From Naegleria gruberi (lineage: Eukaryota), in the NCBI GenBank assembly GCA_000004985.1, contig GG738911.1: a stretch of DNA of 64,000 bases, one strand, 5' to 3'. The notes below the pieces were generated by a model. That model was not told the DNA's origin. It did not search any database and was given only the letters and a program-made list of their open reading frames with translations. Positions 25,062 through 60,499 of this stretch are shown one piece after another. Each line of letters starts with the position of its first letter. Position 1 is the first letter of the stretch. Made by a program: the position numbers and the translations under genes.

Positions 25062-25150
25062 TACAAAATCAAAAACTACTACCAAGAACTTTCTTTTTTA
25101 ATTATTTAAAGGATAGTTTCAAATTTTTAAATTGTTCGGATTCTAGAGGA

Positions 25151-26093
25151 ATGCGTTGGTCTTCTGATATGTTGTGTTTTGCTCAAGATTTATTATCTTC
25201 TATGGGATATAATTTGTATGATGCAATTGGAAGAGGATCAATTGGTAAAGAGAAGTTCCAAACCAATTCCAGTGCTTGTAATTTAATTCTGCCCTGTTCC
25301 ACAACTCTTGACAATCATTTCCATATACCAAATTTCGGATATGGTGATACTTCAATTGACGAAAAGGAATTTGAATTATTCCAATCATCTATGGGTATTT
25401 CTAATACAACCCTTGGTGTTTTACAAGTTGATGCAATGGATTTATTTCCGTGTTTGAGTATTAATACACGTACTGGATTTTTAGTTGGTGCAATACAAGG
25501 ATTAATTCCAATTTCTCAATCAAACACTATCACAGAGGAAATAATTAATAATAACTTTCTAGCTGAAAAGGTAATTCAAACATTATTTTTGGATGTTGAG
25601 GGGAAAATTAGAATACCTGGAAATTTTCAATTTTGTAAATCTGAAACTAGTGAATTGATTGAAAAAGTAGTTGAAAAATTCAAGGAAGTCTATACTGACA
25701 ACATTTGTTGCACTGTTTCTGATGCAGGATCTGCTAATTGGACATATTTTACAAATTTAAAAAGTGAGAAAACTTTTCATCACTTCTGTTACTCTCACTT
25801 GGCTAAAAATATTAGAAATGCTATTGATTCAAAACCCAAACTGTTTCCAATTGAACACAGAAAGATAACAGAACCTAGTATTTTGACTAAGGAAACCTCA
25901 AACACTTATTCTACACACAAAGGTGTATGTCATTTATTTAGAATTCAATTTAAAAAGACAAGTAATATCACCATCCACTTATCAATTGTGATAGAAGATA
26001 AGAAAATTGATATATTCTGGAATAATCGTTCAAATACAACAGTACACAACTACAGTACATTATCTTCCTTTTATTCAGTTAATGATAAAACGT
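25151..26093 (+). CDS. hAT-like DDE transposase fragment. The 3' end is truncated by a gap and the 5' end is uncertain (first ATG after the gap).
   Basis: Open frame of about 314 codons. It contains ...CCTVSDAGSANW...(16 aa)...FCYSHLAKNIRNAID, which resembles the hAT blocks TDNASNM and CxAHxLNL. It lies in a subtelomeric contig. Confidence 0.35.
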
Positions 26094-26143
26094 NNNNNNN
26101 NNNNNNNNNNNNNNNNNNNNNNNNNNNNNNNNNNNNNNNNNNN
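26094..26143. other. Scaffold gap of 50 N.
   Basis: Run of n. Confidence 0.99.
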
Positions 26144-26769
26144 ATCATATCAATAATAATCATCATGACCATCCAAATATCACTCTTTCCAATAAAATTC
26201 AACCAAGTAATAGTTGAAGAATATTCATTCGAAAAATCCAGCACCGAATTAAATTCCTTCTCACCCTGTGCAGTCTCCATATATAATGCTCTATGAACAA
26301 GTACTCCAATCATGATCTTTTCCATCAAACTCGACAAGACGAAAAGTCCAAACAAGAGATTGACCCAGAGTGCTCTCTTATCAAATCTCCAAAATAATTT
26401 AACAAAGGCCACAACTATAAACAAGGCTACTCCTTGATACATTATATGATGATACCTTCCTTCTTCTCCCATTTGATGAAGTAAACTCCAAACCTTCTCC
26501 GATGACATCCATCCCCATCCAAATCTCGTTCCCAACGTTAAATGTATCCACGATGATTCATATATTTGTACATAATGATAGAAAGCATATGGAAGGGAGA
26601 GAATTAAACCAAGAAACCAATAAAACAAGGAATTTGATCTTAAATTGGTTAAAATTGATTTCTTATTGTTGTATTTTACATATCCACTCGATGATGATGA
26701 TGATGTAGCCGAGAATAATTTATTGGATGATGCAAAAGTTGAAGTGGAAGGCAAGGTTGTCGGTAACAT
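26144..26769 (-). CDS. Small multi-pass membrane protein, paralogue copy A; its C-terminus is lost in the gap. Possibly EXPERA/TMEM97-like.
   Basis: ATG at 26769 (MLPTTLPSTSTF...). At least 3 hydrophobic helices. About 97% identical to the complete 225-aa copy at 59183-59860. Start of FYWFLGLILSLPYAFYHYVQI weakly resembles the sigma-2/TMEM97 N-terminus. Confidence 0.55.
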
Positions 26770-26983
26770 TTGTAATTCGAATATTTTTTAAATCAAAAAA
26801 AATAATAATATAAAATATTATTTTTTATTCCGTGATGAAAATCAAATTAGGAAAGGGGAATAATTTCCATCATTTCAAAGAAAAAAAAAAGCGCCAACTA
26901 AGCAAAATAATTATTGGCTTTGAAAAAGTCCGGCTAAAAGTGATACAAGAATACTCATAGATTAGTTGAATCCAATCATCATC

Positions 26984-27435
26984 ATGATCAGTTTATTTAT
27001 TGCTGCCTTGTTCGGATCAAATAGCAGAAATTTAGATAAAACTTCCAATCAACAATTATTTGGCTATGAACAACAACAACAACAACCAGTAAATCATCAT
27101 CATCCTCCTCATCAACAACAACAGCCTCCACAACAACCACAACAACAATATTATGTAAATAATCCGCAGCCTCTACCACCAAATTATCAACCTTCAATTC
27201 CGCCACCCAATCATAGAAATTCAATCATTAGTAATAATAATAATATTAATAATAATATTAATTATCATCTACAACAACAACCAGTAAATCAACAGCCTCC
27301 TCCTTCTTCTACCTCTAATTCCTTCAAAGTTAATAATAATAATTATCCTAATGTAATAACAACAACATATCCGCCACAACAACAACAAGCAAATACTACT
27401 GGTTATCCACAATCACAAATTGTAGATCACAATCA
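26984..27435 (+). CDS. Secreted Q/N/P-rich protein, paralogue copy A; truncated at a contig end.
   Basis: ATG at 26984 gives MISLFIAALFGS, which looks like a signal peptide (the track start at 26966 is TTG). Poly-Q, poly-N and PPxY-like low complexity. Near-identical to 60063-60499 of copy B. The frame then runs into a gap and telomere repeat; the QTQT/PKPK translation there is spurious. Confidence 0.55.
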
Positions 27436-27485
27436 NNNNNNNNNNNNNNNNNNNNNNNNNNNNNNNNNNNNNNNNNNNNNNNNNN
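27436..27485. other. Scaffold gap of 50 N.
   Basis: Run of n. Confidence 0.99.
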
Positions 27486-27786
27486 CCCAAACCCAAACCC
27501 AAACCCAAACCCAAACCCAAACCCAAACCCAAACCCAAACCCAAACCCAAACCCAAACCCAAACCCAAACCCAAACCCAAACCCAAACCCAACCCAAACC
27601 CAAACCCAAACCCAAACCAAAAACCCAAACCCAAACCCAAACCCAAACCCAACCCAAACCCAAACCCAAACCCAAACCCAAACCCAAACCCAAACCCAAA
27701 CCCAAACCCAAACCCAAACCCAAACCCAAACCCAAACCCAAACCCAAACCCAAACCCAAACCCAAACCCAAACCCAAACCCAACCC
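27486..27786. repeat. Second (CCCAAA)n telomeric tract, internal to the scaffold, in the same orientation as the terminal one; minor CCCAA and CCAAAAA variants.
   Basis: About 50 hexamer units begin immediately after a gap and are followed by unique AT-rich sequence (27787-28485). Confidence 0.9.
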
Positions 27787-28485
27787 ACGACTAAGGTCAG
27801 ACCCAACATTTTGACTTTTATTCATCTTAATTCATTATCTCAATAAATACTCATTATAAATCAATATATTATATATCAATATACTCCAAATTGAATATAT
27901 AATCATATTATAACATAATATTATATCATTATAATGACTTATATAAGTTAATTTCAAATAATAGATTAGACAATTAGAATATCAATGAAACCATTTCAAA
28001 ACCATTTCAAATCAATATATCACATTATAAATCATGTTAGCAACAATGTATATCAATTTCAGATACTTTGGTATCATTTCAGGATATTTGCTATTCAACT
28101 TGTCAACTGACCAATACTAACATTGAAGATAGAAATCTTTACCACTTCAATTCACTTCCAATACATATATACATGATAATTAAATACATTAATATCATTT
28201 TGACATTCATCCATATTATACATGGTACATGGCTGTTCCACTTGATACCTACAGGGATGTGACAATGACATCCACTATACAGATCATTATGAAATTGTTA
28301 CAGTACCTTACTTATGGTGAATAAACACTACTGTATCAGTTTCATGACAATTTGAAATCATCCAACATGTCAGGAGTGTAATCATGAGAACTATGAATGT
28401 CAGTATAATGAAATCATATTAATTTTGAAATCTTTCAATTATATCATCGTAGATAGATCAATTAACCATGGTATATCAATAATTG

Positions 28486-31400
28486 NNNNNNNNNNNNNNN
28501 NNNNNNNNNNNNNNNNNNNNNNNNNNNNNNNNNNNNNNNNNNNNNNNNNNNNNNNNNNNNNNNNNNNNNNNNNNNNNNNNNNNNNNNNNNNNNNNNNNNN
28601 NNNNNNNNNNNNNNNNNNNNNNNNNNNNNNNNNNNNNNNNNNNNNNNNNNNNNNNNNNNNNNNNNNNNNNNNNNNNNNNNNNNNNNNNNNNNNNNNNNNN
28701 NNNNNNNNNNNNNNNNNNNNNNNNNNNNNNNNNNNNNNNNNNNNNNNNNNNNNNNNNNNNNNNNNNNNNNNNNNNNNNNNNNNNNNNNNNNNNNNNNNNN
28801 NNNNNNNNNNNNNNNNNNNNNNNNNNNNNNNNNNNNNNNNNNNNNNNNNNNNNNNNNNNNNNNNNNNNNNNNNNNNNNNNNNNNNNNNNNNNNNNNNNNN
28901 NNNNNNNNNNNNNNNNNNNNNNNNNNNNNNNNNNNNNNNNNNNNNNNNNNNNNNNNNNNNNNNNNNNNNNNNNNNNNNNNNNNNNNNNNNNNNNNNNNNN
29001 NNNNNNNNNNNNNNNNNNNNNNNNNNNNNNNNNNNNNNNNNNNNNNNNNNNNNNNNNNNNNNNNNNNNNNNNNNNNNNNNNNNNNNNNNNNNNNNNNNNN
29101 NNNNNNNNNNNNNNNNNNNNNNNNNNNNNNNNNNNNNNNNNNNNNNNNNNNNNNNNNNNNNNNNNNNNNNNNNNNNNNNNNNNNNNNNNNNNNNNNNNNN
29201 NNNNNNNNNNNNNNNNNNNNNNNNNNNNNNNNNNNNNNNNNNNNNNNNNNNNNNNNNNNNNNNNNNNNNNNNNNNNNNNNNNNNNNNNNNNNNNNNNNNN
29301 NNNNNNNNNNNNNNNNNNNNNNNNNNNNNNNNNNNNNNNNNNNNNNNNNNNNNNNNNNNNNNNNNNNNNNNNNNNNNNNNNNNNNNNNNNNNNNNNNNNN
29401 NNNNNNNNNNNNNNNNNNNNNNNNNNNNNNNNNNNNNNNNNNNNNNNNNNNNNNNNNNNNNNNNNNNNNNNNNNNNNNNNNNNNNNNNNNNNNNNNNNNN
29501 NNNNNNNNNNNNNNNNNNNNNNNNNNNNNNNNNNNNNNNNNNNNNNNNNNNNNNNNNNNNNNNNNNNNNNNNNNNNNNNNNNNNNNNNNNNNNNNNNNNN
29601 NNNNNNNNNNNNNNNNNNNNNNNNNNNNNNNNNNNNNNNNNNNNNNNNNNNNNNNNNNNNNNNNNNNNNNNNNNNNNNNNNNNNNNNNNNNNNNNNNNNN
29701 NNNNNNNNNNNNNNNNNNNNNNNNNNNNNNNNNNNNNNNNNNNNNNNNNNNNNNNNNNNNNNNNNNNNNNNNNNNNNNNNNNNNNNNNNNNNNNNNNNNN
29801 NNNNNNNNNNNNNNNNNNNNNNNNNNNNNNNNNNNNNNNNNNNNNNNNNNNNNNNNNNNNNNNNNNNNNNNNNNNNNNNNNNNNNNNNNNNNNNNNNNNN
29901 NNNNNNNNNNNNNNNNNNNNNNNNNNNNNNNNNNNNNNNNNNNNNNNNNNNNNNNNNNNNNNNNNNNNNNNNNNNNNNNNNNNNNNNNNNNNNNNNNNNN
30001 NNNNNNNNNNNNNNNNNNNNNNNNNNNNNNNNNNNNNNNNNNNNNNNNNNNNNNNNNNNNNNNNNNNNNNNNNNNNNNNNNNNNNNNNNNNNNNNNNNNN
30101 NNNNNNNNNNNNNNNNNNNNNNNNNNNNNNNNNNNNNNNNNNNNNNNNNNNNNNNNNNNNNNNNNNNNNNNNNNNNNNNNNNNNNNNNNNNNNNNNNNNN
30201 NNNNNNNNNNNNNNNNNNNNNNNNNNNNNNNNNNNNNNNNNNNNNNNNNNNNNNNNNNNNNNNNNNNNNNNNNNNNNNNNNNNNNNNNNNNNNNNNNNNN
30301 NNNNNNNNNNNNNNNNNNNNNNNNNNNNNNNNNNNNNNNNNNNNNNNNNNNNNNNNNNNNNNNNNNNNNNNNNNNNNNNNNNNNNNNNNNNNNNNNNNNN
30401 NNNNNNNNNNNNNNNNNNNNNNNNNNNNNNNNNNNNNNNNNNNNNNNNNNNNNNNNNNNNNNNNNNNNNNNNNNNNNNNNNNNNNNNNNNNNNNNNNNNN
30501 NNNNNNNNNNNNNNNNNNNNNNNNNNNNNNNNNNNNNNNNNNNNNNNNNNNNNNNNNNNNNNNNNNNNNNNNNNNNNNNNNNNNNNNNNNNNNNNNNNNN
30601 NNNNNNNNNNNNNNNNNNNNNNNNNNNNNNNNNNNNNNNNNNNNNNNNNNNNNNNNNNNNNNNNNNNNNNNNNNNNNNNNNNNNNNNNNNNNNNNNNNNN
30701 NNNNNNNNNNNNNNNNNNNNNNNNNNNNNNNNNNNNNNNNNNNNNNNNNNNNNNNNNNNNNNNNNNNNNNNNNNNNNNNNNNNNNNNNNNNNNNNNNNNN
30801 NNNNNNNNNNNNNNNNNNNNNNNNNNNNNNNNNNNNNNNNNNNNNNNNNNNNNNNNNNNNNNNNNNNNNNNNNNNNNNNNNNNNNNNNNNNNNNNNNNNN
30901 NNNNNNNNNNNNNNNNNNNNNNNNNNNNNNNNNNNNNNNNNNNNNNNNNNNNNNNNNNNNNNNNNNNNNNNNNNNNNNNNNNNNNNNNNNNNNNNNNNNN
31001 NNNNNNNNNNNNNNNNNNNNNNNNNNNNNNNNNNNNNNNNNNNNNNNNNNNNNNNNNNNNNNNNNNNNNNNNNNNNNNNNNNNNNNNNNNNNNNNNNNNN
31101 NNNNNNNNNNNNNNNNNNNNNNNNNNNNNNNNNNNNNNNNNNNNNNNNNNNNNNNNNNNNNNNNNNNNNNNNNNNNNNNNNNNNNNNNNNNNNNNNNNNN
31201 NNNNNNNNNNNNNNNNNNNNNNNNNNNNNNNNNNNNNNNNNNNNNNNNNNNNNNNNNNNNNNNNNNNNNNNNNNNNNNNNNNNNNNNNNNNNNNNNNNNN
31301 NNNNNNNNNNNNNNNNNNNNNNNNNNNNNNNNNNNNNNNNNNNNNNNNNNNNNNNNNNNNNNNNNNNNNNNNNNNNNNNNNNNNNNNNNNNNNNNNNNNN

Positions 31401-31839
31401 NNNNNNNNNNNNNNNNNNNNNNNNNNNNNNNNNNNNNNNNNNNNNNNNNNNNNNNNNNNNNNNNNNNNNNNNNNNNNNNNNNNNNNNNNNNNNNNNNNNN
31501 NNNNNNNNNNNNNNNNNNNNNNNNNNNNNNNNNNNNNNNNNNNNNNNNNNNNNNNNNNNNNNNNNNNNNNNNNNNNNNNNNNNNNNNNNNNNNNNNNNNN
31601 NNNNNNNNNNNNNNNNNNNNNNNNNNNNNNNNNNNNNNNNNNNNNNNNNNNNNNNNNNNNNNNNNNNNNNNNNNNNNNNNNNNNNNNNNNNNNNNNNNNN
31701 NNNNNNNNNNNNNNNNNNNNNNNNNNNNNNNNNNNNNNNNNNNNNNNNNNNNNNNNNNNNNNNNNNNNNNNNNNNNNNNNNNNNNNNNNNNNNNNNNNNN
31801 NNNNNNNNNNNNNNNNNNNNNNNNNNNNNNNNNNNNNNN
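28486..31839. other. Assembly gap of 3,354 N.
   Basis: Run of n. Confidence 0.99.
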
Positions 31840-32149: not shown

Positions 32150-33319
32150 TCAATGATATAAATCTTCACTAAGTAATATATTAAATAACCCAAATAAATC
32201 AACTCTGAATCCTAACCAAACCCAAACCCCCCCACCCAAACCCAACCCAAACCCAACCCCAAACCCTGAAACATAATCATCACATTGCATATCAGATAAG
32301 GTTGAATATTGCATCAAATTCTTAGTTCTGGTTGAGGCAATTTCAAAGGTTTTAACTTGGGCAACCTTTTCAGAGGATGTTTCATTGTGAATGAGTTTAA
32401 GCAAATCATCCATTCCCAAATTATTGACCTTCTCTTCTCCCAATTCTTTAATTTTTTTAGCAACAAGATTGTCCATATCTTCATCTTCCACACAACCATT
32501 AATCACCAAATTTGGAATCTTATTAGCATCTGTTAAGAGTAAACATTTACCATCAGTTTTAGTTGTCAAATAATCCATAAACAAGGTCAATTGTTGATCA
32601 TCCTTAGCTCTTTCACACAAAATTCCATAAAAGACAACATTCTTCTCCTGGAGAGCAGATCCCAATTTGATCCAATCAATGACATTTCCTTGTTGATCCT
32701 TACATCCTTCTGGATAGCTATCAGATGATGTTTTCATTCCATGTGGAGGAGCATCAGCAACCCAAACAACAATCTTCTTTCCCTTCTTATTAAATGGCAT
32801 TTCATTAATGACATAGAGAGCTGATGCCAAAGCTTCTGGATGATCACCTCCACCTTGAGCTGACATTGTATTGATATAACCCTTTGCCTTATTTAAATCC
32901 TTTGTAAATGGGAATTCCTTAACTGCATAATCATCAGTGTGATCTCTATAACTGACAGCTGAAAATCTCAAATCAGATTGAAACTTTTCATGAAGTGTTG
33001 AGATGATAGTAGTGACAGTTCGTTTGGCAACTTCAATTTCACCAGACATTGATCCAGTACAATCCATTACAATAACCAAATCAACAATATTTTCACTGTG
33101 GTCAACCAATTCTTGATCATAACCTTCTTCTTCCAAATGTTTAGCACGAATCCAAGCACCAGGTCTTTGAGAATTGCTGTTGTGTTTGTGTTCATCATCA
33201 TGACGATCCACAATTGACAAATCATCCATTCTTCTTCCTAATTTTTCTTCGACTGGCAACATTTCGTCAAAACAATCATCATCACAATTGTTTAAATCTG
33301 AAGGAATGTAGAGATCCAT
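32150..33319 (-). CDS. von Willebrand factor A (vWA) domain protein. The C-terminal ~40 codons are read from the telomere-like tract, so the true 3' end is uncertain.
   Basis: ATG at 33319. VIVMDCTGSMSGEI is a MIDAS-type D-x-[ST]-G-S-M motif, and VVWVADAPPHG also fits a vWA fold. The tail GFGVGFGLGLGGG is a translation of the G-rich telomeric strand. Confidence 0.6.
   Translation of the reverse strand: MDLYIPSDLNNCDDDCFDEMLPVEEKLGRRMDDLSIVDRHDDEHKHNSNSQRPGAWIRAKHLEEEGYDQELVDHSENIVDLVIVMDCTGSMSGEIEVAKRTVTTIISTLHEKFQSDLRFSAVSYRDHTDDYAVKEFPFTKDLNKAKGYINTMSAQGGGDHPEALASALYVINEMPFNKKGKKIVVWVADAPPHGMKTSSDSYPEGCKDQQGNVIDWIKLGSALQEKNVVFYGILCERAKDDQQLTLFMDYLTTKTDGKCLLLTDANKIPNLVINGCVEDEDMDNLVAKKIKELGEEKVNNLGMDDLLKLIHNETSSEKVAQVKTFEIASTRTKNLMQYSTLSDMQCDDYVSGFGVGFGLGLGGGVWVWLGFRVDLFGLFNILLSEDLYH
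32211..32266. repeat. Degenerate interstitial telomere-like tract.
   Basis: Sequence cctaaccaaacccaaacccccccacccaaacccaacccaaacccaaccccaaaccc. It lies 370 bp right of the gap edge and inside the 3' end of the vWA ORF. Confidence 0.7.
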
Positions 33320-41273: not shown

Positions 41274-44200
41274 ATGATACATACAACACCTTCATCTGGA
41301 ACAAGTGAAACCTCTCACTATTTACTTCCGAACCAAGGTAATGAGAACAATCGAATATTTTCCTCTCCTTCATCATTAGAATATTCTCTTTCATCTCTGG
41401 GAAGTCATAGTCCGCAGTTCTATCACAGTCCACCTACGAGTCCTGAATCTTTGAATTTAATGGAAAATCATAATGAAAATCATCGACTAGTTCAAGATCA
41501 ACATGAAGATTTAAAATATTTGGACGATAATAGTGGACAACATCAATATTCAATGGAAACTGGTCAGAGTTCAATAACAACAGAGAATCATCATAATAAT
41601 TGTGATAGTTATGAAGTTTCGTTGAATATTGATGATGGACACATGAATGGACATGAGACAGATGAGTTTAGAGTAGACACAGGTATTCGGTCAGTGCTTA
41701 GACGATTTTCGTGGCTTACACTTGGGTCCTCTTCGAGTACTACTCCAAGGAGTCGTCATTCCATTGGATTACCCACAACCAACAATTTATTTAGTCCACC
41801 CATTACAGAGACGAGAAAGTTCAGTATTGGGCAAAAGCAACATCCAAATACGGCATTCGTTTTGATGAGTCCACAAAGTCCACGAACCACCACTCCATCA
41901 CCAACTACAAGCTCATCAAGTATGGCTCATGAATTGGAGCAGCAAAATCATGAATCTGTGGAAACTCCAGTGTCTTCATTGGTTGACCAAGATATTGCTC
42001 AATCAGGAGATGTTACTCCAGTTCAGTCCAACAATTATCGAGCAAATACATATTCTCCACCTCCATTCACCAGAACTATTTCTGTAGTCTTAAACGACAT
42101 TACGAATTCACCTGTTGGTGTCGAGAGAAGGAGACGAGATTCAATTGCCTCGAATAAGAAAGTTAATGAACGAGCTAATAGTATTGCATACCGTACTTCG
42201 AATATCACCAATCTGATTAATAACACGTCATTCCACAGCACAAAGAAGCAACTTGAAAAGGAAAAGAAGAGGAGAGGAGAATCATGTTCCAAATTTTGTC
42301 ATTCCTTCTTTACCATTTCAAATATTTTGATGGGAATTTTCATTTTGCAAGCAATTGTTTGCTTGATTTTTGGAATTTCAATTATGAGAGCTGGTGGTGC
42401 CATTTTGGATGTGAAAATTCGTGAATATCAATTCTTACAAATCAGGGCATTTGTAGAGGAACGTATCAGTAGCTTCACCTCAAAATACACAACCATGACT
42501 AATCACATGATGGAAGGTTTGAAGGGAATTCCCATCAATGATAATGTTGCCCTTCTGAGATTCTTTGATTATGTAGCAATTACCTTTGGAACTGATACCT
42601 CACTGAATCGAATGGAATTCTATAGAATGGATGATTCATTCTCCATGCTTAGAGATTTCAATAATGGAAAATCTGTAATTTCAATCAATTCCATTTCGAA
42701 TCCATCCATGTTTTCGACCTATTTGTGGCCTAAGACTCTTACTTTTGTGGAGAACCCAAATGGATACTATGCCTCTTCAAGTGATACTTCCTATTCGATT
42801 TATAAGAATTACATGTATGGACCCATACTCGAATTGAACGAAATATTTAACAATTCGGCCGTGCTCAATAATTTTATTCTCAACAATCAGGAAGTATTTT
42901 GTAAATCACTCTCTAGCAATATTCCATCTAATTACAACAATTTCAAATGGGTACCAAGCAAATCCATTCAAAATTCGAGTATTTTCCTGCATTATCCAGT
43001 TTATATCAGTAACAATTACAATCATACCATTGTGTCTCCCAATACGAGAAAGATGTTCATTGTAAATTCAGATCAAAATTTGGAGAATAGCTACTTGTTT
43101 GGAGTTTTCAGTTTGCACTTTTCAATTGATAGATTTACAACCTTGTTAAATGTTCAGAATGAGAGATTCTACTTGCAATCCGAGTATTCTTCAAATACAA
43201 GTTTTATCATGAATACGTGGGGTGATATTTTGGCTACTAGAGGAGATGGAAACGAATCTCTACACAATATTCAACTCATTTACAAAACCATCATGAAACA
43301 TGGTCTTAAAAAGAATTGTGAAGTTGAGAGTGAAGTTATAGACATTCCAAATACTAGATTGACTGCTAGATTGTCGTATACTTGTGATGGTCATGGATTG
43401 AATTTGGTATTGGTTGTTGAAATGGACAATTCAGATTCTTTCATTCCTCTATTATTGGCAAATAATTCAATTCTTTCGTTTGTGGCATCATTTTTGCTGA
43501 TTATCGTGTCTATCATTGTAATGATTGCAGTTCTGAGAGCTCTCAATACATCAATGGAACGAATGTCGAAGAAATTACACAGAATTACAAGACTAAAACA
43601 AAGGGAAAGCGAGGGAGGCAAATCATTCAGTCAAATCATTTCAGATTTCTTCCCAAACACGTCAATGACTGTTTTCTATGAAGTGAGAGAAATTGAAAAT
43701 CTAATCATGTTATTGGGTCAAGGAATGGATGCTTTGAAAAAGTTTCTTCCCGAACCGTTTGTTAAAGAGATTATACTATCAAAACCACTGCCTTTCAATG
43801 TTGCAACAAAGAAGCACTTGACAATCTTGTTTTGTGAGCTGGCAGGTTGTGATAAGATGGCAGATACTATTGATATTCCTCTCTTTTTGGAAATGATTAC
43901 AGAGTACAGTTCAATAATGTGTAAAATCATTCAGGATCATAAGGGTATGATTGATCGATTTGATGGAGGAACAGCCATGTGCTTATTCTCCTTCCAGGAT
44001 AACACTTTAATTCCAACTGAACAAAATCAAGAAGTAAATGCATGTCATGCTGCCATGGATATCATTTACATGATGGAGGATTTCAAAACCAAGTGGCAAA
44101 AACGTACAGGGCATCCAATTCACATTGAGATTGGAATTAATTCTGGAGAGATTTATTATGGAAATTTCAATTGCACTGATTCTAGATCAAGTTATTCAGT

Positions 44201-44657
44201 GCTCGGTGCAAGCTTAGATATTGCCTCTACTTTGCAACGTTTCAATTTTTCATACTCTACACAGGTTCTCATTGGAGAGGAGACATTCTTGAAAGTTAAG
44301 GATATTTTCGTGTGTTATTTTGTGGATTTGGTGAGATTTTCTGGCTACAAGAAAAGGAGGGGAATGAAAATATATTCATTAGAATGTCCAGTTCGAGAGA
44401 GCACCGATTTGGAGAGGAAGATTGCACTGGATTTGGAACAAGTTCAGCAAAAAATCATGGAAAAGAGTTATGCCTCTGCTTTGAGTTTATGTGGACAAGT
44501 CATGCTGTTCAATGATAGACCACAAGTGAGTTATTTGCACAATCGATTGAGCCATGCAAAAGAAGAGAGCGAAAAGGTGATTCCCAATGATAATGATCTT
44601 TTTTCTACAGTGGCAAACTTTGGTATTGATCCAGAGGAGATTTTATCATTCTTGTAA
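41274..44657 (+). CDS. Receptor-type class III nucleotidyl (adenylyl/guanylyl) cyclase-like protein: S/T/Q-rich N-terminus, TM1, ~400-aa extracytoplasmic domain, TM2, C-terminal cyclase homology domain.
   Basis: ATG at 41274, TAA at 44655-44657. TMs FFTISNILMGIFILQAIVCLIFGISIM and ILSFVASFLLIIVSIIVMIAVL. Cyclase homology domain LTILFCELAGCD...IDRFDGGTAMCLF...IGINSGEIYYGNF...YSVLGASLDIASTLQ with a class-III-like order of motifs but substituted key residues. Confidence 0.75.
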   Translation: MIHTTPSSGTSETSHYLLPNQGNENNRIFSSPSSLEYSLSSLGSHSPQFYHSPPTSPESLNLMENHNENHRLVQDQHEDLKYLDDNSGQHQYSMETGQSSITTENHHNNCDSYEVSLNIDDGHMNGHETDEFRVDTGIRSVLRRFSWLTLGSSSSTTPRSRHSIGLPTTNNLFSPPITETRKFSIGQKQHPNTAFVLMSPQSPRTTTPSPTTSSSSMAHELEQQNHESVETPVSSLVDQDIAQSGDVTPVQSNNYRANTYSPPPFTRTISVVLNDITNSPVGVERRRRDSIASNKKVNERANSIAYRTSNITNLINNTSFHSTKKQLEKEKKRRGESCSKFCHSFFTISNILMGIFILQAIVCLIFGISIMRAGGAILDVKIREYQFLQIRAFVEERISSFTSKYTTMTNHMMEGLKGIPINDNVALLRFFDYVAITFGTDTSLNRMEFYRMDDSFSMLRDFNNGKSVISINSISNPSMFSTYLWPKTLTFVENPNGYYASSSDTSYSIYKNYMYGPILELNEIFNNSAVLNNFILNNQEVFCKSLSSNIPSNYNNFKWVPSKSIQNSSIFLHYPVYISNNYNHTIVSPNTRKMFIVNSDQNLENSYLFGVFSLHFSIDRFTTLLNVQNERFYLQSEYSSNTSFIMNTWGDILATRGDGNESLHNIQLIYKTIMKHGLKKNCEVESEVIDIPNTRLTARLSYTCDGHGLNLVLVVEMDNSDSFIPLLLANNSILSFVASFLLIIVSIIVMIAVLRALNTSMERMSKKLHRITRLKQRESEGGKSFSQIISDFFPNTSMTVFYEVREIENLIMLLGQGMDALKKFLPEPFVKEIILSKPLPFNVATKKHLTILFCELAGCDKMADTIDIPLFLEMITEYSSIMCKIIQDHKGMIDRFDGGTAMCLFSFQDNTLIPTEQNQEVNACHAAMDIIYMMEDFKTKWQKRTGHPIHIEIGINSGEIYYGNFNCTDSRSSYSVLGASLDIASTLQRFNFSYSTQVLIGEETFLKVKDIFVCYFVDLVRFSGYKKRRGMKIYSLECPVRESTDLERKIALDLEQVQQKIMEKSYASALSLCGQVMLFNDRPQVSYLHNRLSHAKEESEKVIPNDNDLFSTVANFGIDPEEILSFL

Positions 44658-51972: not shown

Positions 51973-54309
51973 ATGACAACAGACAGCCATCATCACTCGC
52001 TTCTCATACGACAATACATCTTTCTATCCTCCATTCTTCTTCTCCTTTTCGTCTTTTCACAAGTTTCGTCTCAAGATTATTACATTTCGAATACGGGATT
52101 TTTAGCTCCACAACCAGATGGAATAACATACAATGCAGGGAGTTTATATGTAGCCCTGAATGCTACCAATAGAATAGTCAAGTTTGACCTCACCTCGCAA
52201 CAAGTTTCGTATATTGCTGGAACTGGCCAGGAAGGTTTCGGTGGAGAAAACGAAATTGCGACCGAATCTCCTCTCCGAGCTCCATCAATTGCAAAACTGG
52301 CCTCTGATGGTACCATTTACATTACCGATTGTTCAAATGATAGAATTAGAAAGATTGTTGCTGGCAATGTTTCGACTCTAGTTTCGTCTATTTCATTGAG
52401 TCGACCTTTCGGATTAGATATTCATCCAATAAGTGGTGATTTGTACATTTCAGAATTAACTTCACGAATTGTCAAATTGACACCAAGTTCTGGAATAGCA
52501 GAAGCTTTGACTTTGAATGGAAATGGTTACAATGGAGATCAAATTCTAGCAATTTCTGCCAATGTCAACAATCCATTGCATATCCACGTGAAAAGTAATG
52601 GAGAATATTACTTTTTGGATTATGGAAATAATGCTATTCGAAAGGTGGATCTAAATGGATATATTTCTACAATAGTTTTGGGTGCATTTACTGCTATTGG
52701 TGGCGATCCTTTAATTAGTAATGAATTTTATTATGGAGGAGTTGGACAAATTTTCAAATATTCGAATGGATCATCTGTTCTAATTGCTGGTGGAGGAGTT
52801 TTGGATGTGGATGATGTTGATGCTAAAACTGTAATGTTTGGCCAAGTTTTTGGAATTACTTTGGGAGTGAGTGGTGAGGTTTACTTTTCAGATTATGGAA
52901 ATGGAAGAATTAGAAAGTTGGTGACATGTAGTGCAGGAACTTCCTATTCTGGCTATACTCATTCGTGTGTTTCTTGTTTTGGAGCAAGTGGTGCAGGGGC
53001 ATGTTCTGGAAATGGTGTTTGCATTAATAATGATGTTTGCGCATGTACTGTTTCAGGTTTTAGTGGAACTTATTGCAATGTTTCCGTTACTACTTGTTTT
53101 AACATTACAAGCGATCAGCCAACTACTTGTTCAGGTCATGGATCTTGCGTTTCTTTGAATAATTGTTCGTGTCTTTCTGGATATGATGCAATCGATTGCT
53201 CTGTCAACATTTCACCATTTGCAATGAGTACCAGTATTTCTTCAACCTCAGTTTCAGACTCTTCAGCAATTGGCATTCAAGCAATTTACTCTTCAGATGT
53301 TAATCCAACTTATTTCATTTGGGCTTGTACGAATTGTATCTATAAGGATTCGAATAATCAATTGCAATTTAGCAATATATCAAATACTGCCATTATTGAT
53401 GGTTCATTACTCAGTGTAGGAACTTATTCATTTACTGTTTATGGTATTTATGATAATGGACCTTCGTATCCAGCCAGAGTTTCGAATGTTGCCAATTTCC
53501 AAATCACAGTAATCAAATCAGTATTTTCTTCATCTTCGTTGGAGATTTATGGATTGCCATCGGTTGTGGTGGCTACAAACGCATCAAGCTCTCTCAACAT
53601 TATCATTCCACGACTTTCTCTCGATCAAACTCTCATTAATCAATTCTTGTCATGCAGTAACAGCTCAACAACATGTGGATTGTTAATTTCCTACAATGCT
53701 GCTCTGTCAATTACCAAGAACTCAATTACCTCCGTCATTTCAAGTTACAACGGTTACACCATGGCCAGTACAAATTTCATGAATAATACCATCACCTTTA
53801 CTCCATCTTTGAATTTTAAGGATAGTAATGCATATTCTGGCACTGAAATGATTCTCAATTTGGAGCTTACTGGTGCCACCAATTTGACCTTCTCTACTTC
53901 AGTACCAATTTATTCTTCAGCCACTCCACCACAAAGTACATCTGCAAATTCGACAGGTGGCGTGTTGGTTGATGTTTTGGGAATAGTGTCTCCATCATCA
54001 GGTAGAGCCCTCTCTGATCTTTTCACAATTACTTTTTCATCATGGACTGCAGCAGCTCAATTATTACCTTTGAAATATTCTGTTGGATTTGTAGATCCTG
54101 TTACTTCGAATGTGGTGAGAGTTACCGATTATACAGAGACCACTTCAGCTAATTTCATTCTTCCTTATCTTTCTTCGGTTTCTAATAGTAGAGGCCTTTT
54201 AGCTACTAGCTCGGTATCTGTAGTTGTTTTTGTGAATGATTCTATGGGAAATCAATATTCAAGTACTGTTCTCCCTATGCAGGAACAACGACAGAGTTGG
54301 TTTCTCTAA
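51973..54309 (+). CDS. Extracellular NHL-repeat / EGF-like (tenascin-type Cys-rich) / S-T-rich region with a signal peptide. Probably the 5' part of the GPCR gene below.
   Basis: Signal-like LLIRQYIFLSSILLLLFVFSQVSS. NHL repeats (GTIYITDCSNDRIRKI, GDLYISELTSRIVKL, EYYFLDYGNNAIRKV, EVYFSDYGNGRIRKL). EGF-like CSGNGVCINNDVCACTVSGFSGTYC...CSGHGSCVSLNNCSCLSGYDAIDC. The track ORF ends with TAA at 54307-54309 and overlaps the next ORF. Confidence 0.6.
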   Translation: MTTDSHHHSLLIRQYIFLSSILLLLFVFSQVSSQDYYISNTGFLAPQPDGITYNAGSLYVALNATNRIVKFDLTSQQVSYIAGTGQEGFGGENEIATESPLRAPSIAKLASDGTIYITDCSNDRIRKIVAGNVSTLVSSISLSRPFGLDIHPISGDLYISELTSRIVKLTPSSGIAEALTLNGNGYNGDQILAISANVNNPLHIHVKSNGEYYFLDYGNNAIRKVDLNGYISTIVLGAFTAIGGDPLISNEFYYGGVGQIFKYSNGSSVLIAGGGVLDVDDVDAKTVMFGQVFGITLGVSGEVYFSDYGNGRIRKLVTCSAGTSYSGYTHSCVSCFGASGAGACSGNGVCINNDVCACTVSGFSGTYCNVSVTTCFNITSDQPTTCSGHGSCVSLNNCSCLSGYDAIDCSVNISPFAMSTSISSTSVSDSSAIGIQAIYSSDVNPTYFIWACTNCIYKDSNNQLQFSNISNTAIIDGSLLSVGTYSFTVYGIYDNGPSYPARVSNVANFQITVIKSVFSSSSLEIYGLPSVVVATNASSSLNIIIPRLSLDQTLINQFLSCSNSSTTCGLLISYNAALSITKNSITSVISSYNGYTMASTNFMNNTITFTPSLNFKDSNAYSGTEMILNLELTGATNLTFSTSVPIYSSATPPQSTSANSTGGVLVDVLGIVSPSSGRALSDLFTITFSSWTAAAQLLPLKYSVGFVDPVTSNVVRVTDYTETTSANFILPYLSSVSNSRGLLATSSVSVVVFVNDSMGNQYSSTVLPMQEQRQSWFL

Positions 54310-56927
54310 TCGGTTCATATGCCAGCTCTTCTCTTCTCACTGTTTTCAGTTATGACACCTCTCTTTCCGCTGCCAATTCTACTTCCTCAAGTGATGTTGC
54401 ATTGGAAATTGTGAAGAGTGTAGTAATTGATCCAAAGAATCCTACCACAGCTCTCACAGCCATTCAACAAGCTACCTCAAATCCAGAGGCTGTCGATTCT
54501 CGTGTCATTACTGAATTAACTAACAAGATTAATAATTTTGTAGCAACTCTCAATACTAATTACAAAGAAGAGAGAGCTCTTTATGGATTTGTCAAATCTA
54601 AATTGGCAACTGCTGACACAACAAGAACAACAGAAATTATTTCAAATGTTTTGGCAAGTGGAAGAGGAAATCAACAATCTAAGGGAATGGCAGATAATTT
54701 GACCAATTTATTAATTTTGGGAGAAATTGCCACATTATTAACTGGTCAGGATCAATCATCAGATGTTAACGAGTTGACCAAAGTTTCCTTCACATCTTCT
54801 CAATTGGATATTGCTGTTGCCGTCTTTACTTTGGATAAAGAAATGAATGGAACCAATCAAATGATTGGAGGTGATAATTCTGTAACCATGCCATTGTCAC
54901 AAATCACGAAACAATACAATGGATTCTCTAAAGAATCTGCCACTACCATGATCACCTATGATCAAAATATTTACTCTCAATCCAATGTTAGCGTCCTAAC
55001 TTCAACAGTGACTGATTTTAAATATTATCAAAATCAACAAGTTGTAACATTGGAGAATTTATCACAAAATATTGAACTCAAATTCAAAATTACAAATTCT
55101 ACAATTGTAATGGAAAAGATTATGGAATATATCAATAGTACAACTCAATTCAATTCAACCTCAAACAGCACCCAATCCAATTCTACTCTAGTGATGGCTT
55201 GCAAATATTGGGATGAATCTGCACTTGCTTGGAGCAGTAGAGGATGCTATCTGAAAGGATACAATTTGACAAGTCAAGAAATTCTCTGTTCTTGTTCTCA
55301 CACGACAATGTTCACAACCTTTGTGGAACAAAACACTTCGACAATTCCTGCTTCAGTGAAGGAAACAGTTGCTGCCTTTTATTATGGTCAAATTGCGTTG
55401 GGAATTTTCTATTTCTTGACTTCCATTGTCATTCTTTGTTTGTTGATTATTTTCAAGAATGAACAACCAATTTCATCTCGTTTGATTACTCCATACTTGG
55501 GAATGATTGCATTGATTGTGGAATCTCTTCTCGTTTACATTACACAAAGAGGTATTTTAGTGAGACAGTTGACTTCTACTTCAACTCAAATGTGGGAATC
55601 TGGAGATACTGATGCCAACACAATTGCAAACATTGTTCTCATATTTGCGAATACCATTAATTTGACAGCCATTTTATCTTATGTCATGCAAGTGTTGAGA
55701 TTCCAAGTTATGAAATACTTGTACGATTTATTGGCCTCCAGTAGAAATAATGAAAAGAAGAGCGATAGAATTTTGACAGTTTTGAGATTCTTGACATCTT
55801 CCTCATTGTTTTCCGCTATTTTAATTGTATTTGCAGTTATTAATGTATGCTATTGGGTCTTGTGGGTTGTTTTGAGAAGAACTGGAGTCCTTCCACCAGC
55901 AACATACACCTACATTGTTTCCATTTCGTATACGGTTATCATTTTCACATTTGGTGTCATTATTACATTGGTAGCAATCTTTGACTGGGTTGGATCTTCA
56001 GCCAAAGCAGGAATCAAAGCCAAGAGAAACTCCTCACTCACCAGAGAATCCAAATTCAAAATTGAAGAAGAAATTCAGAAGGAAATGGAAAAGTTTGATA
56101 TTTTCGAAAAGATTTACACAATTCTAGTAGGAATTGATGAACCATTGTATTTCAGAACTGAAATGATTATTTATGTGATTAGTTTCGTATTTTTAATCTT
56201 AAATCAAGTTATTGGATTGGTAGGAAATGAACTTAGATATGGAAATGAAGCCTCGTACAAGAAGGCGCTAATATTCGACTCCATTTCATTTATTTTCGAA
56301 GTTCTCTACGTGTTTACCTATTTATTTGTCTTTGGAGGATACTCTCTCATTCTATTACTCATTAGCAAGGTGAAAACATACAGAAATAACAAGGAAATGA
56401 AAAAATCTGCCAAGAAAAACATCAGCCAAGGTAGAGAAATCAACGAGGACATGTCACTTGTCTTTTCCAGCGATGAAGCCACTGAATTATTCGCCAGTTT
56501 CTGCGTTAAGGAATTCTCCTCTGAAAACTTTTATCTCTACTCAGATTTGAAAGAAAATACAGACATTATCGAAGGTAATAACATGCGAAAATTGCATCCA
56601 TATCTTCACTACATTCACGACACGTATGTGAAAGATGGCGCCAACTATCAAGTGAATATTCCAAACAAGTGCAGAACTAGTTTTATGAATCTGTTCAACA
56701 AGTATGCGAATGAGGTTTTGGAAATGTTGGATTCACAACTCAGTGAAAAGATCTCAACGGAAATAAGGAGTAGTTTTGAAATTCTAGTTCAGCAAATATT
56801 TGTCAATTTGGGAGATACCTTTTCAAGATTTGTATTTACTGTGGAATTTAAGGTTTTTAAGAAAGCATATGAACTTAGACAGGATATTTTGGAGGAATCT
56901 AATGTTGTTTTAATTGATGATGAGTAA
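54297..56927 (+). CDS. GPS motif, 7TM domain and C-terminal RGS domain (adhesion-GPCR-like with a built-in GAP). It has no ATG of its own; it is probably spliced to the upstream NHL/EGF ORF.
   Basis: GPS-like CKYWDESALAWSSRGCYLKGYNLTSQEILCSCSHTTMFTTF. Seven hydrophobic helices. RGS box FASFCVKEFSSENFYLYSDL...YQVNIP...LVQQIFVNLGDTFSRFVFT. The frame is open from 54240. Confidence 0.65.
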   Translation: MVSLIGSYASSSLLTVFSYDTSLSAANSTSSSDVALEIVKSVVIDPKNPTTALTAIQQATSNPEAVDSRVITELTNKINNFVATLNTNYKEERALYGFVKSKLATADTTRTTEIISNVLASGRGNQQSKGMADNLTNLLILGEIATLLTGQDQSSDVNELTKVSFTSSQLDIAVAVFTLDKEMNGTNQMIGGDNSVTMPLSQITKQYNGFSKESATTMITYDQNIYSQSNVSVLTSTVTDFKYYQNQQVVTLENLSQNIELKFKITNSTIVMEKIMEYINSTTQFNSTSNSTQSNSTLVMACKYWDESALAWSSRGCYLKGYNLTSQEILCSCSHTTMFTTFVEQNTSTIPASVKETVAAFYYGQIALGIFYFLTSIVILCLLIIFKNEQPISSRLITPYLGMIALIVESLLVYITQRGILVRQLTSTSTQMWESGDTDANTIANIVLIFANTINLTAILSYVMQVLRFQVMKYLYDLLASSRNNEKKSDRILTVLRFLTSSSLFSAILIVFAVINVCYWVLWVVLRRTGVLPPATYTYIVSISYTVIIFTFGVIITLVAIFDWVGSSAKAGIKAKRNSSLTRESKFKIEEEIQKEMEKFDIFEKIYTILVGIDEPLYFRTEMIIYVISFVFLILNQVIGLVGNELRYGNEASYKKALIFDSISFIFEVLYVFTYLFVFGGYSLILLLISKVKTYRNNKEMKKSAKKNISQGREINEDMSLVFSSDEATELFASFCVKEFSSENFYLYSDLKENTDIIEGNNMRKLHPYLHYIHDTYVKDGANYQVNIPNKCRTSFMNLFNKYANEVLEMLDSQLSEKISTEIRSSFEILVQQIFVNLGDTFSRFVFTVEFKVFKKAYELRQDILEESNVVLIDDE

Positions 56928-58276: not shown

Positions 58277-59041
58277 ATGACTTTAACTCATACAAATCAA
58301 CCAAGTTATGGAGCAACTCAATACGGACAACAACCACAATATATGCCTCCACAAGGTTATCCACAACAACCACAATATGCACAACAACCGCAAATGGGAT
58401 ATCAACAACCAATGATGGCTCAAACAACAGTCATTTCAACTCCATCCAATTTACAACAATATCCAAATGGTGGACCTGTTATGGAGACAATTATTGACAC
58501 ACGAATTTCTTCTGGTACTTTCCTCTCTTTGAATTTATCACCACAACTCTTGTCGAACACTTTGGGAGCTTATGGTTTTCCAAATGCTGCCAATGCTCCA
58601 GCCGATATTGAAAATAACATTATTAGACCAATCAATAATTTATTCACTCAATTCTACAACAAATCATCCAATTATGATACCTACTACATGATCTCGTTTA
58701 TTATCTTGATGATTTTAATCATTTTAACAGCTGGTTTGGGTGTAGTATTCATTTTCATCATCTTCGTCTTCCCATATTTGAAGAATAGACACATTTCATC
58801 CTTCAATGAAACTACTCAGATTCAAGTGAGAAACCTTTTACAAAAGGAAAATCAAAACAAGTATATGCCACACGGTTTGGAATGGGTTATTCTCTATGAA
58901 GTGAAACCAGGAACTAGTTCTCTCTTTACTGGTTTCACCTGTATGCAAGAAGCCAGTTTGAAACTCATTCGTGTCAGTAGACAAGTCCCAACTGTCACTA
59001 CAACTGTCACACAACAACAAGACACTTTGGTAATGAACTAA
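58277..59041 (+). CDS. Membrane protein with a prion-like Q/P/Y-rich N-terminus and one TM.
   Basis: ATG at 58277. Repeats of QQPQY / PQGYPQQPQYAQQPQMGYQQP. TM YYMISFIILMILIILTAGLGVVFIFIIFVF. Confidence 0.55.
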   Translation: MTLTHTNQPSYGATQYGQQPQYMPPQGYPQQPQYAQQPQMGYQQPMMAQTTVISTPSNLQQYPNGGPVMETIIDTRISSGTFLSLNLSPQLLSNTLGAYGFPNAANAPADIENNIIRPINNLFTQFYNKSSNYDTYYMISFIILMILIILTAGLGVVFIFIIFVFPYLKNRHISSFNETTQIQVRNLLQKENQNKYMPHGLEWVILYEVKPGTSSLFTGFTCMQEASLKLIRVSRQVPTVTTTVTQQQDTLVMN

Positions 59042-59182: not shown

Positions 59183-59860
59183 TTAAAATTGATAATTATT
59201 ACGATTAATAGATTGCATCAATTTAGGTTTCACAATCATATCAATAATAATCATCATGACCATCCAAATATCACTCTTTCCAATAAAATTCAACCAAGTA
59301 ATAGTTGAAGAATATTCATTCGAAAAATCCAGCACCGAATTAAATTCCTTCTCACCCTGTGCAGTCTCCATATATAATGCTCTATGAACAAGTACTCCAA
59401 TCATGATCTTTTCCATCAAACTCGACAAGACGAAAAGTCCAAACAAGAGATTGACCCAGAGTGCTCTCTTATCAAATCTCCAAAATAATTTAACAAAGGC
59501 CACAACTATAAACAAGGCTACTCCTTGATACATCATATGATGATACCTTCCTTCTTCTCCCATTTGATGAAGTAAACTCCAAACCTTCTCCGATGACATC
59601 CATCCCCATCCAAATCTCGTTCCCAACGTTAAATGTATCCACGATGATTCATATATTTGTACATAATGATAGAAAGCATATGGAAGGGAGAGAATTAAAC
59701 CAAGAAACCAATAAAACAAGGAATTGGATCTTAAATTGGTTAAAATTGATTTCTTATTGTTGGATTTTACATATCCACTTGATGATGATGATGATGACAT
59801 AGTCGAGAATAATTTATTGGATGATGCAAAAGTTGAAGTGGAAGGCAAGGTTGTCGGCAA
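59183..59860 (-). CDS. Small multi-pass membrane protein, paralogue copy B (complete). The canonical ATG is mutated to ACG; the first in-frame ATG is 20 codons downstream at 59800.
   Basis: Track start at 59860 is TTG. Copy A has ATG TTA CCG at the homologous site; copy B has ACG TTG CCG. Upstream, in-frame, is a TAA. An internal ...STMSSSS supplies an ATG not present in copy A. Confidence 0.55.
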   Translation of the reverse strand: MPTTLPSTSTFASSNKLFSTMSSSSSSSGYVKSNNKKSILTNLRSNSLFYWFLGLILSLPYAFYHYVQIYESSWIHLTLGTRFGWGWMSSEKVWSLLHQMGEEGRYHHMMYQGVALFIVVAFVKLFWRFDKRALWVNLLFGLFVLSSLMEKIMIGVLVHRALYMETAQGEKEFNSVLDFSNEYSSTITWLNFIGKSDIWMVMMIIIDMIVKPKLMQSINRNNYQF

Positions 59861-60499
59861 CGTTTGTAATTCGAATATTTTTTAAAAATAATAATAAAAT
59901 ATTATTTTTCATTCCGTGATGAAAATCAAATTAGGAAAGGGGAATAATTTCCATCATTTCAAAGAAAAAAAAAAGCGCCAACTAAGCAAATTATTTGCTT
60001 TGAAAAAGTCGGCTAAAAGAATTGATAATATACTCATAGTAGATTTGTTGAATCCAATCATCATGATCAGTTTATTTATTGCTGCCTTGTTCGGATCAAA
60101 TAGCAGAAATTTAGATAAAACTTCCAATCAACAATTATTTGGCTATGAACAACAACAACCAGTAAATCATCATCATCCTCCTCATCAACAACAACAGCCT
60201 CCACAACAACCACAACAACAATATTATGTAAATAATCCGCAGCCTCTACCACCAAATTATCAACCTTCAATTCCGCCACCCAATCATAGAAATTCAATCA
60301 TTAGTAATAATAATATTAATAATAATAATAATTATCATCTACAACAACAACCAGTAAATCAACAACCTCCTTCTTCTACCTCTAATTCTTTCAAAGTTAA
60401 TAATAATAATTATCCTAATGTAATAACATATCCGCCACAACAGCAACAAGCAAATACTACCAATGGTTATCCACAATCACAAATTGTAGATCACAATCA
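59235..60499. repeat. Segmental duplication copy B, embedded in continuous sequence.
   Basis: Same as copy A. The real extent of the duplication is at least this long and possibly longer; copy A is cut by gaps. Confidence 0.85.
59861..60062. promoter_or_regulatory. Short bidirectional intergenic/promoter region of the duplicated divergent gene pair.
   Basis: About 200 bp AT-rich spacer between divergent CDSs. It is conserved with indels in copy A (26770-26983). Confidence 0.35.

Follow-up and report, generated by a model that had tools for sequence, protein, structure and literature searches.

A near-identical second copy of a divergent gene pair at a Naegleria gruberi scaffold end is more likely a misplaced allele than a recent duplication

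Introduction

Segmental duplications are known at the chromosome ends of yeast, human, Plasmodium and trypanosomes, where genes can occur in several high-identity copies close to telomere repeats. The locus studied here raises the question of whether a block of about 1.3 kb that is found twice near one end of a Naegleria gruberi scaffold is a duplication of this kind, or whether the assembly has set two versions of a single locus apart. The sequence analysed, a stretch of 64,000 nucleotides that we call the window, is the left end, and probably the first 64 kb, of one scaffold of 261,328 bp from strain NEG-M. The block occupies positions 26144-27435 (copy A) and recurs at 59235-60499 (copy B). 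A sequence-only reading had regarded the two copies as a recent subtelomeric segmental duplication, and had itself named the scenario that would overturn this view, in which one copy is an allelic contig. We judge that scenario to be more likely than duplication, and regard the second copy as more probably created by the assembly, which would thereby reveal a locus that is heterozygous and hypervariable.

The N. gruberi assembly from the JGI is a Sanger-era draft, presumably built with JAZZ. It comprises 1,977 contigs in 784 scaffolds (PMC6125883). Nanopore data have also been produced for N. gruberi (PMC12695648). N. gruberi has been reported to be heterozygous, and the genus Naegleria to be mainly heterozygous diploid (PMC9928731).

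False duplications of this type have been described in detail for other draft genomes. Where haplotypes have diverged, a second short contig can form from the heterozygous core and be scaffolded near the first (PMC2864568). What results is a ‘duplicated contained contig’, a short contig whose entire length is matched by a longer one placed within 50 kb (Kelley & Salzberg 2010, Genome Biol 11:R28, PMC2864568). The published criteria are an alignment that covers >93% of the short contig, a longer contig within 50 kb and an identity >95%, and the assemblies tested were made with Celera Assembler, Arachne and PCAP (PMC2864568). Most of the false duplicates were shorter than 2 kb, with a median identity of 98.1% and few above 99.5%. 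Mate pairs proved 42-52% of these contigs false in chicken and chimpanzee. One false duplicate kept its position through one mate pair only, all its other mates being stretched by about 61 kb (PMC2864568).

Results

The N-run map of the window revealed that only about 36 kb is real sequence, the rest being runs of N. Four gaps are present in the window, each to the left of the main contig: 811-25061 (24,251 N), 26094-26143 (50 N), 27436-27485 (50 N) and 28486-31839 (3,354 N). Between them lie a piece of real sequence at 1-810, a contig of 1,032 bp on the plus strand at 25062-26093, copy A, and a contig of 1,000 bp at 27486-28485 that starts with (CCCAAA)n. The main contig is gap-free from 31840 to 64000 and beyond, and contains copy B on the plus strand, with both of its genes complete. 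A gene at 58277-59041 flanks copy B on one side. Together with the alignment described below, the map identifies copy A (plus strand) as a complete contig of 1,292 bp. It is enclosed by 50-N runs, the second of which separates it from the contig that bears the telomere-type tract. The limits of the block coincide with the ends of the contig and, with a 50-N gap on each side, they are assembly breaks rather than the ends of a duplicon. The reading of the locus as a demonstrated segmental duplication is therefore not supported, copy A being a free-standing contig between two gaps.

An annotated protein, XP_002670793.1 (NAEGRDRAFT_74101; P0004), matches an open reading frame on the 1,032-bp contig and belongs to a record of 261,328 bp, as do the proteins of copy B. 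Its exon 1 (25151-25924, plus strand) is directly followed by GTATGT, and its exon 2 (26339-26434, plus strand) lies inside copy A, antisense to a gene for a hydrophobic membrane protein. As the two exons are on opposite sides of the first 50-N run, the annotated intron spans this gap, and the gene model is almost certainly chimeric. The same two exons place both the 1,032-bp contig and copy A in the record of copy B. Searches with exon 1, an orphan ORF, gave neither a Pfam match nor a paralogue. The fact that both long telomere tracts start right after a boundary had first given rise to a reading of the 50-N runs as separators of independent records. We rejected this reading, given that the exons of XP_002670793.1 flank the first of these gaps and that this protein and copy B share one record.

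Local alignment matched the full length of copy A to 59235-60499 in direct orientation, at a distance of 33,091 bp, with 1238 matches, 14 substitutions and 53 gap columns in 15 indels. The similarity was confirmed to be far above chance. Identity amounts to 98.9% on aligned bases, to 94.9% when every gap column is counted (94.9% over 1304 columns by BLASTN) and to 97.7% (1238/1267) when each indel is treated as one event. The earlier estimate of a block of at least 1.29 kb with about 97-98% identity is in agreement with this last figure, the words ‘at least’ holding only because the contig ends.

The differences between the copies can be grouped into 28 events, of which 14 involve substitutions, nine are indels in the spacer between the two genes and six are coding indels. 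All 28 fall within a divergent core of 958 bp (26443-27400), and the leftmost 299 bp of copy A are identical to copy B; under a uniform model, the probability of zero events in this left end is 6e-4. The part of the block within the membrane-protein gene (626 bp) carries seven substitutions and a single 3-bp indel. The spacer (214 bp) carries three substitutions and nine indels of 8, 2, 4, 1, 3, 4, 1, 3 and 3 bp, and the part within the second gene, which encodes a Q/N-rich protein (452 bp), four substitutions and five indels of 6, 3, 3, 6 and 3 bp. Changes of repeat number in coding sequence had been held to make up most of the differences, which the counts contradict, as only six of the 28 events are coding indels.

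All six coding indels are multiples of three, versus three of the nine in the spacer. Five of the six are whole-unit changes in runs of CAA, AAT, ACA or CCT, and the sixth is a 3-bp change beside a TCA run. Comparison of the translations confirmed each of the peptide examples given earlier (QQQQQPV/QQQPV, PPPSS/PPSS and TTGYP/TTNGYP) and added two more, NNNNINNNI/NNNINNNNN and VITTTYPP/VITYPP. Markers of the A type in the coding parts are QQQQQ, PPP and the (CAA)5 that precedes CCAGTA. The description of microsatellite slippage within the ORFs, tolerated in frame, was accurate in that every coding indel is in frame and lies in or beside a trinucleotide run. However, the slipping units are trinucleotides and the slippage mechanism itself preserves the reading frame, so we dropped the in-frame indels as a sign of selection because they are uninformative on this point. 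Length polymorphism of trinucleotide repeats through replication slippage is a known property of Q/N-rich coding regions, and the whole-unit, frame-preserving changes seen here resemble it without any distinctive feature. The in-frame variation in repeat length is real under either reading of the locus, and ordinary. It would look alike between alleles and between young paralogues, and has for this reason no bearing on the question of duplication.

The alignment and the ORFs agree that the window holds two diverged versions of one divergent gene pair. The pair had been described as carried by each copy; both genes are indeed present in both copies, but in copy A both are truncated. The minus-strand gene extends over 59183-59863 in copy B (NAEGRDRAFT_74114 / XP_002670853.1, annotated model 59183-59800), and the annotated protein of 205 amino acids is 100% identical to the one encoded by copy B. 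In copy A the gene occupies 26144-26769 on the minus strand, with its ATG at 26767-26769, and lacks the last 17 codons and the stop as a result of the contig end. The start codons are complementary. Copy A has M1 and no Met21, whereas in copy B the first ATG is mutated to ACG (59861-59863), Met21 is present and the annotation starts at this codon (59798-59800). The protein is a small, multi-pass one with three to four hydrophobic segments, and its AlphaFold model is all-helical with low confidence (pLDDT 60). We found no Pfam match and no PDB sequence match for it, and a metagenome scan gave no relative. The membrane protein is an orphan of N. gruberi-like genomes.

The spacer, which is the divergent promoter of the pair, measures 214 bp in copy A (26770-26983) and 199 bp in copy B (59864-60062), as expected from the approximately 200 bp reported before. 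Beyond it, on the plus strand, the gene for the Q/N-rich protein is complete in copy B (60063-61607; NAEGRDRAFT_59591 / XP_002670800.1), and the annotated product of 514 amino acids is 100% identical to the protein encoded there. Copy A contains only the first 150 of about 514 codons (26984-27435, plus strand) and ends just before a (CAA)5 run. The N-terminal 310 residues of the protein are disordered and rich in Q, N and P, whereas its C-terminal part forms a conserved domain (about 190 residues, 60996-61604). The protein had also been labelled as secreted. A hydrophobic N-terminal stretch of 10 residues is present, but it is the sole basis for the label, which amounts to a guess.

A full HMMER scan of 1.84 billion representatives identified as relatives of the Q/N-rich protein only FDP41_011353 of N. 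fowleri (49% identity), two environmental proteins and a fragment. Together they make up a small heterolobosean family, in which a hydrophobic N-terminus of short length is joined to the conserved C-terminal domain by a linker that is variable and rich in Q, N and P. Neither Pfam nor the PDB sequences gave a match. The C-terminal domain itself (60996-61604; L002:5861-7348; P0005-P0009) occurs only in Naegleria and environmental heteroloboseans, with four representatives among 1.84 billion proteins, and constitutes an uncharacterised lineage-specific domain family. A structural model of this domain shows several strands and then a long helix, at a confidence (pLDDT 42) that is too low for use. 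In another Naegleria genome (Logan contig L002), the orthologue of the Q/N-rich gene is present but its upstream neighbours are unrelated, which indicates that the divergent pairing is specific to N. gruberi; synteny with this genome gives no help in interpreting the block.

In a set of 5.8 billion proteins (annotated proteins only), N. gruberi is represented by one entry for either protein, and the 90%-identity clusters of both contain no further N. gruberi member. The proposal that other chromosome ends might carry the block accordingly finds no counterpart at the protein level, and there is no sign of a multi-copy subtelomeric family among annotated genes. Exact-protein look-ups for independent assemblies of the locus returned nothing on record.

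The cluster of the membrane protein does contain one more member (P0003), which is encoded on L001, a contig of 813 bp from an environmental metagenome (ENA ERZ929261). At the DNA level, L001 is 98.2% identical to copy A over 740 bp and 97.3% identical to copy B over 816 bp, so that its distance to the two copies is about the same. It covers 11 of the A/B differences, at about six of which it is B-like and at about five A-like, and it has four private changes. The A-like states include the 8-bp AAATCAAA insertion and the ATG start, and the contig has both M1 and Met21. Since L001 carries variants of both copies, the A-type variants are biological rather than read errors, and both haplotypes are real. 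Its identity of 97-98% to the locus indicates that N. gruberi-like amoebae with a third haplotype were present in the ERZ929261 sample.

The candidate telomere repeat published for N. gruberi is TTTGGG/CCCAAA (PMC3622300), and the tandem CCCAAA tracts in the window match it. The window contains 107 matches to tandem CCCAAA/TTTGGG versus 0.06 expected by chance, all on one strand. One long (CCCAAA)n tract with left-end polarity occupies 1-333 on the plus strand, where the window and probably also the scaffold begin. The other, of 305 bp, opens the 1,000-bp contig (27486-27790, plus strand); being C-rich on the plus strand it also has left-end polarity, with the chromosome body to its right and copy A on its distal, outer side across the 50-N gap. 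A further telomere-type tract, degenerate, about 55 bp long and oriented like both long tracts, is found in the main contig at 32213-32268, within a minus-strand ORF (32150-33319). One copy of the block had been said to abut a telomere tract. This description is not supported, as copy A adjoins the tract only across an N gap and on its outer side, with no contiguous base linking the two. We found no copy directly internal to the terminal telomere tract, copy A being distal to 27486-27790. With copy A outside a left-end telomere tract, one or more of the contigs clustered at 25-28.5 kb must be misplaced or represent an alternative haplotype.

Discussion

We propose, with a probability of a little under 60%, that copy A is the misplaced other haplotype of a single locus at 59.2-60.5 kb in strain NEG-M, and not a second locus. 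That the A and B versions occupy the same locus is what we infer from the contig structure, the containment of one copy in the other contig, the pattern of variants, the shared scaffold and the natural occurrence of A-type variants. The two alleles would differ by 14 substitutions and 15 indels in about 1 kb, made up of an A/T-rich spacer and the trinucleotide-repeat 5' ends of two coding regions. This divergence may have been too high for a Sanger-era assembler to merge the alleles. Reads spanning the core would then have formed a 1.3-kb contig of their own, while the near-identical flanks would have collapsed into the main contig. As the main contig has no gap at 59 kb, the orphan contig would have been parked, in the correct orientation, in the cluster of gaps just to the left. 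The A/B differences would accordingly represent allelic SNPs and repeat-length variants rather than divergence after duplication.

Copy A resembles the duplicated contained contigs described above. It is shorter than 2 kb, has gaps at both ends and comes from a heterozygous source, and the longer contig to which it is about 98-99% identical lies less than 50 kb away on the same scaffold and has the same orientation. The alignment covers 100% of its 1,292 bp, and copy B is 33,091 bp away. Measured against the 95% identity threshold, copy A lies above it with 98.9% on aligned bases and slightly below it with 94.9% when all 53 gap columns are counted, owing to the many microsatellite indels, so that the outcome hangs on how indels are scored. 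The heterozygosity of N. gruberi is taken from the literature (PMC9928731). Unlike the published cases, copy A presumably comes from a different assembler, and it is known here from the assembly alone rather than from mate pairs.

Several observations argue for a misplaced allele. Copy A is an entire N-bounded contig that aligns to copy B from its first to its last base, at a length, distance and aligned-base identity that fit the definition of a duplicated contained contig. All differences are confined to its core of 958 bp, with none in the first 299 bp (6e-4), A and B have one orientation on one scaffold, and the gap cluster at 26-32 kb contains the nearest gaps to copy B within the window. 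The position of copy A distal to a left-end telomere tract suggests that placements of contigs of about 1 kb at 25-28.5 kb are unreliable. NEG-M has been reported to be heterozygous (PMC9928731), and N. gruberi is without a further annotated copy. Recombination between the alleles of a single locus would be the simplest explanation for the mosaic of A and B states in L001, which leans slightly in the same direction, although gene conversion between paralogues or bubble-popping by a metagenome assembler could also have produced it. On the other side, the official scaffold puts copy A 33 kb from B, whereas the plasmid (short-insert) mates of a misplaced allele would fall at 51-68 kb, and a scaffolding error must be assumed. 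The gapped identity is just under the published cut-off, and the statement about the nearest gap applies to the window, that is, up to 64 kb. Real duplications do accumulate at chromosome ends, and the degenerate interstitial tract at 32.2 kb is another sign of rearrangement.

Alternatively, a real and recent local duplication may have placed the gene pair, or at least its 5' halves, a second time some 33 kb distal to B, as scaffolded; we regard this as possible but on balance doubtful. The near-identical parts of the duplicon would have collapsed into the main contig, only the divergent core would have survived as a separate contig, and later point mutation and replication slippage would account for the differences. 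The official scaffold does set copy A there, in the record of copy B, and a chromosome end with three telomere-type tracts in the same orientation suggests a dynamic structure. The adjacent 1,032-bp contig is unique, which indicates that the region is not a mere dump of redundant fragments. A duplicon larger than 1.3 kb with outer parts nearly identical to B would collapse and leave such an island, and for this reason the anatomy of the contig alone is compatible with an allele as well as with a duplication. Complementary start codons, with M1 in A only and M21 in B only, are possible in diverging paralogues. The ORFs have been kept open in both copies with six of six coding indels in frame, but this is expected anyway when the slipping units are trinucleotides. 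A genuine duplication is expected to have contiguous, distinct flanks for each copy; here copy A is N-bounded, the contigs on either side of it have no similarity to the flanks of B, and we found no overhang into a duplicon and no contiguous flank that would back a second locus. The stated order would also set copy A outside the telomere tract, and the annotated proteome lacks another copy. Moreover, a shared orientation, a shared scaffold and a distance below 50 kb are required for a misplaced allele and merely optional for a duplication. Subtelomeric duplications elsewhere likewise involve high-identity copies, tens of kb from a telomere-repeat tract, of lineage-specific membrane-protein and low-complexity genes. 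In contrast to them, the present case has two copies only, none annotated elsewhere, with 1.3 kb visible, no contiguous junction and a position on the wrong side of the tract.

The placement of copy A in a cluster of contigs of about 1 kb with minimal 50-N gaps is evidently unreliable, and it could on these grounds be a real paralogue from elsewhere, for example from another chromosome end, that was pulled in by a few spurious or repeat-mediated mate links. We consider this to be highly improbable: a true duplication and an error in scaffolding would both be required, the matching orientation and the closeness to B would be a coincidence, and there is no other annotated copy. A technical artefact, whether from reads of poor quality, from a chimeric clone or from contaminating DNA of another strain, is hardly credible. 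The contig of copy A is only a few reads long, and some of the single-base indels in A/T runs of the spacer could be read errors. However, states specific to A (the 8-bp insertion, the ATG start and a T at 26764) recur independently in L001, which largely refutes an artefact, and the coding differences are whole-codon repeat changes rather than random errors. A very unlikely account takes the order of the scaffold literally. Here the chromosome end would have grown stepwise, the tracts at 32.2 kb, at 27.5 kb and at the terminus would be successive ends, and copy A would be a fragment of an internal gene pair that was captured outside a former telomere. A related possibility is that the homologues end differently, with healing at 27.5 kb in one of them, while the other extends 27 kb further and carries the extra copy.

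Our preferred reading, a misplaced allele, would make the locus a small and clean case of heterozygosity for indels and repeat lengths in N. gruberi, including alternative start codons. A real duplication would amount to a small segmental duplication of the ordinary kind, affecting two lineage-restricted genes, and current understanding is unchanged by either outcome. The case nevertheless calls for caution, as a gap-bounded contig of 1.3 kb in a draft assembly can mimic a recent subtelomeric gene duplication, and this contig has already yielded a chimeric gene model across a gap.

The stack of telomere-type tracts in the same orientation at the chromosome end is the only by-product of possible interest. 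The tract at 32213-32268 makes up the last ~40 codons (…GFGVGFGLGLGGGVWVWLGF…) of an ORF with a vWA domain. It looks as if the chromosome had long ago broken within the vWA gene, the break had been healed by the addition of a telomere, and the tract had come to lie in an interstitial position afterwards. The two long tracts (1-333 and 27486-27790) are near-perfect and lie 27 kb apart on one scaffold, with different unique sequence after each. Homologues that end at different points, an interstitial inner tract or a misplaced 1,000-bp contig are possible explanations.

The main contig also encodes a signalling protein (54297-56927) with a GPS motif and a C-terminal RGS domain, with several hydrophobic stretches visible by eye between them, and a large membrane protein with an adenylate/guanylate cyclase domain (41274-44657). 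Both are ordinary signalling genes.
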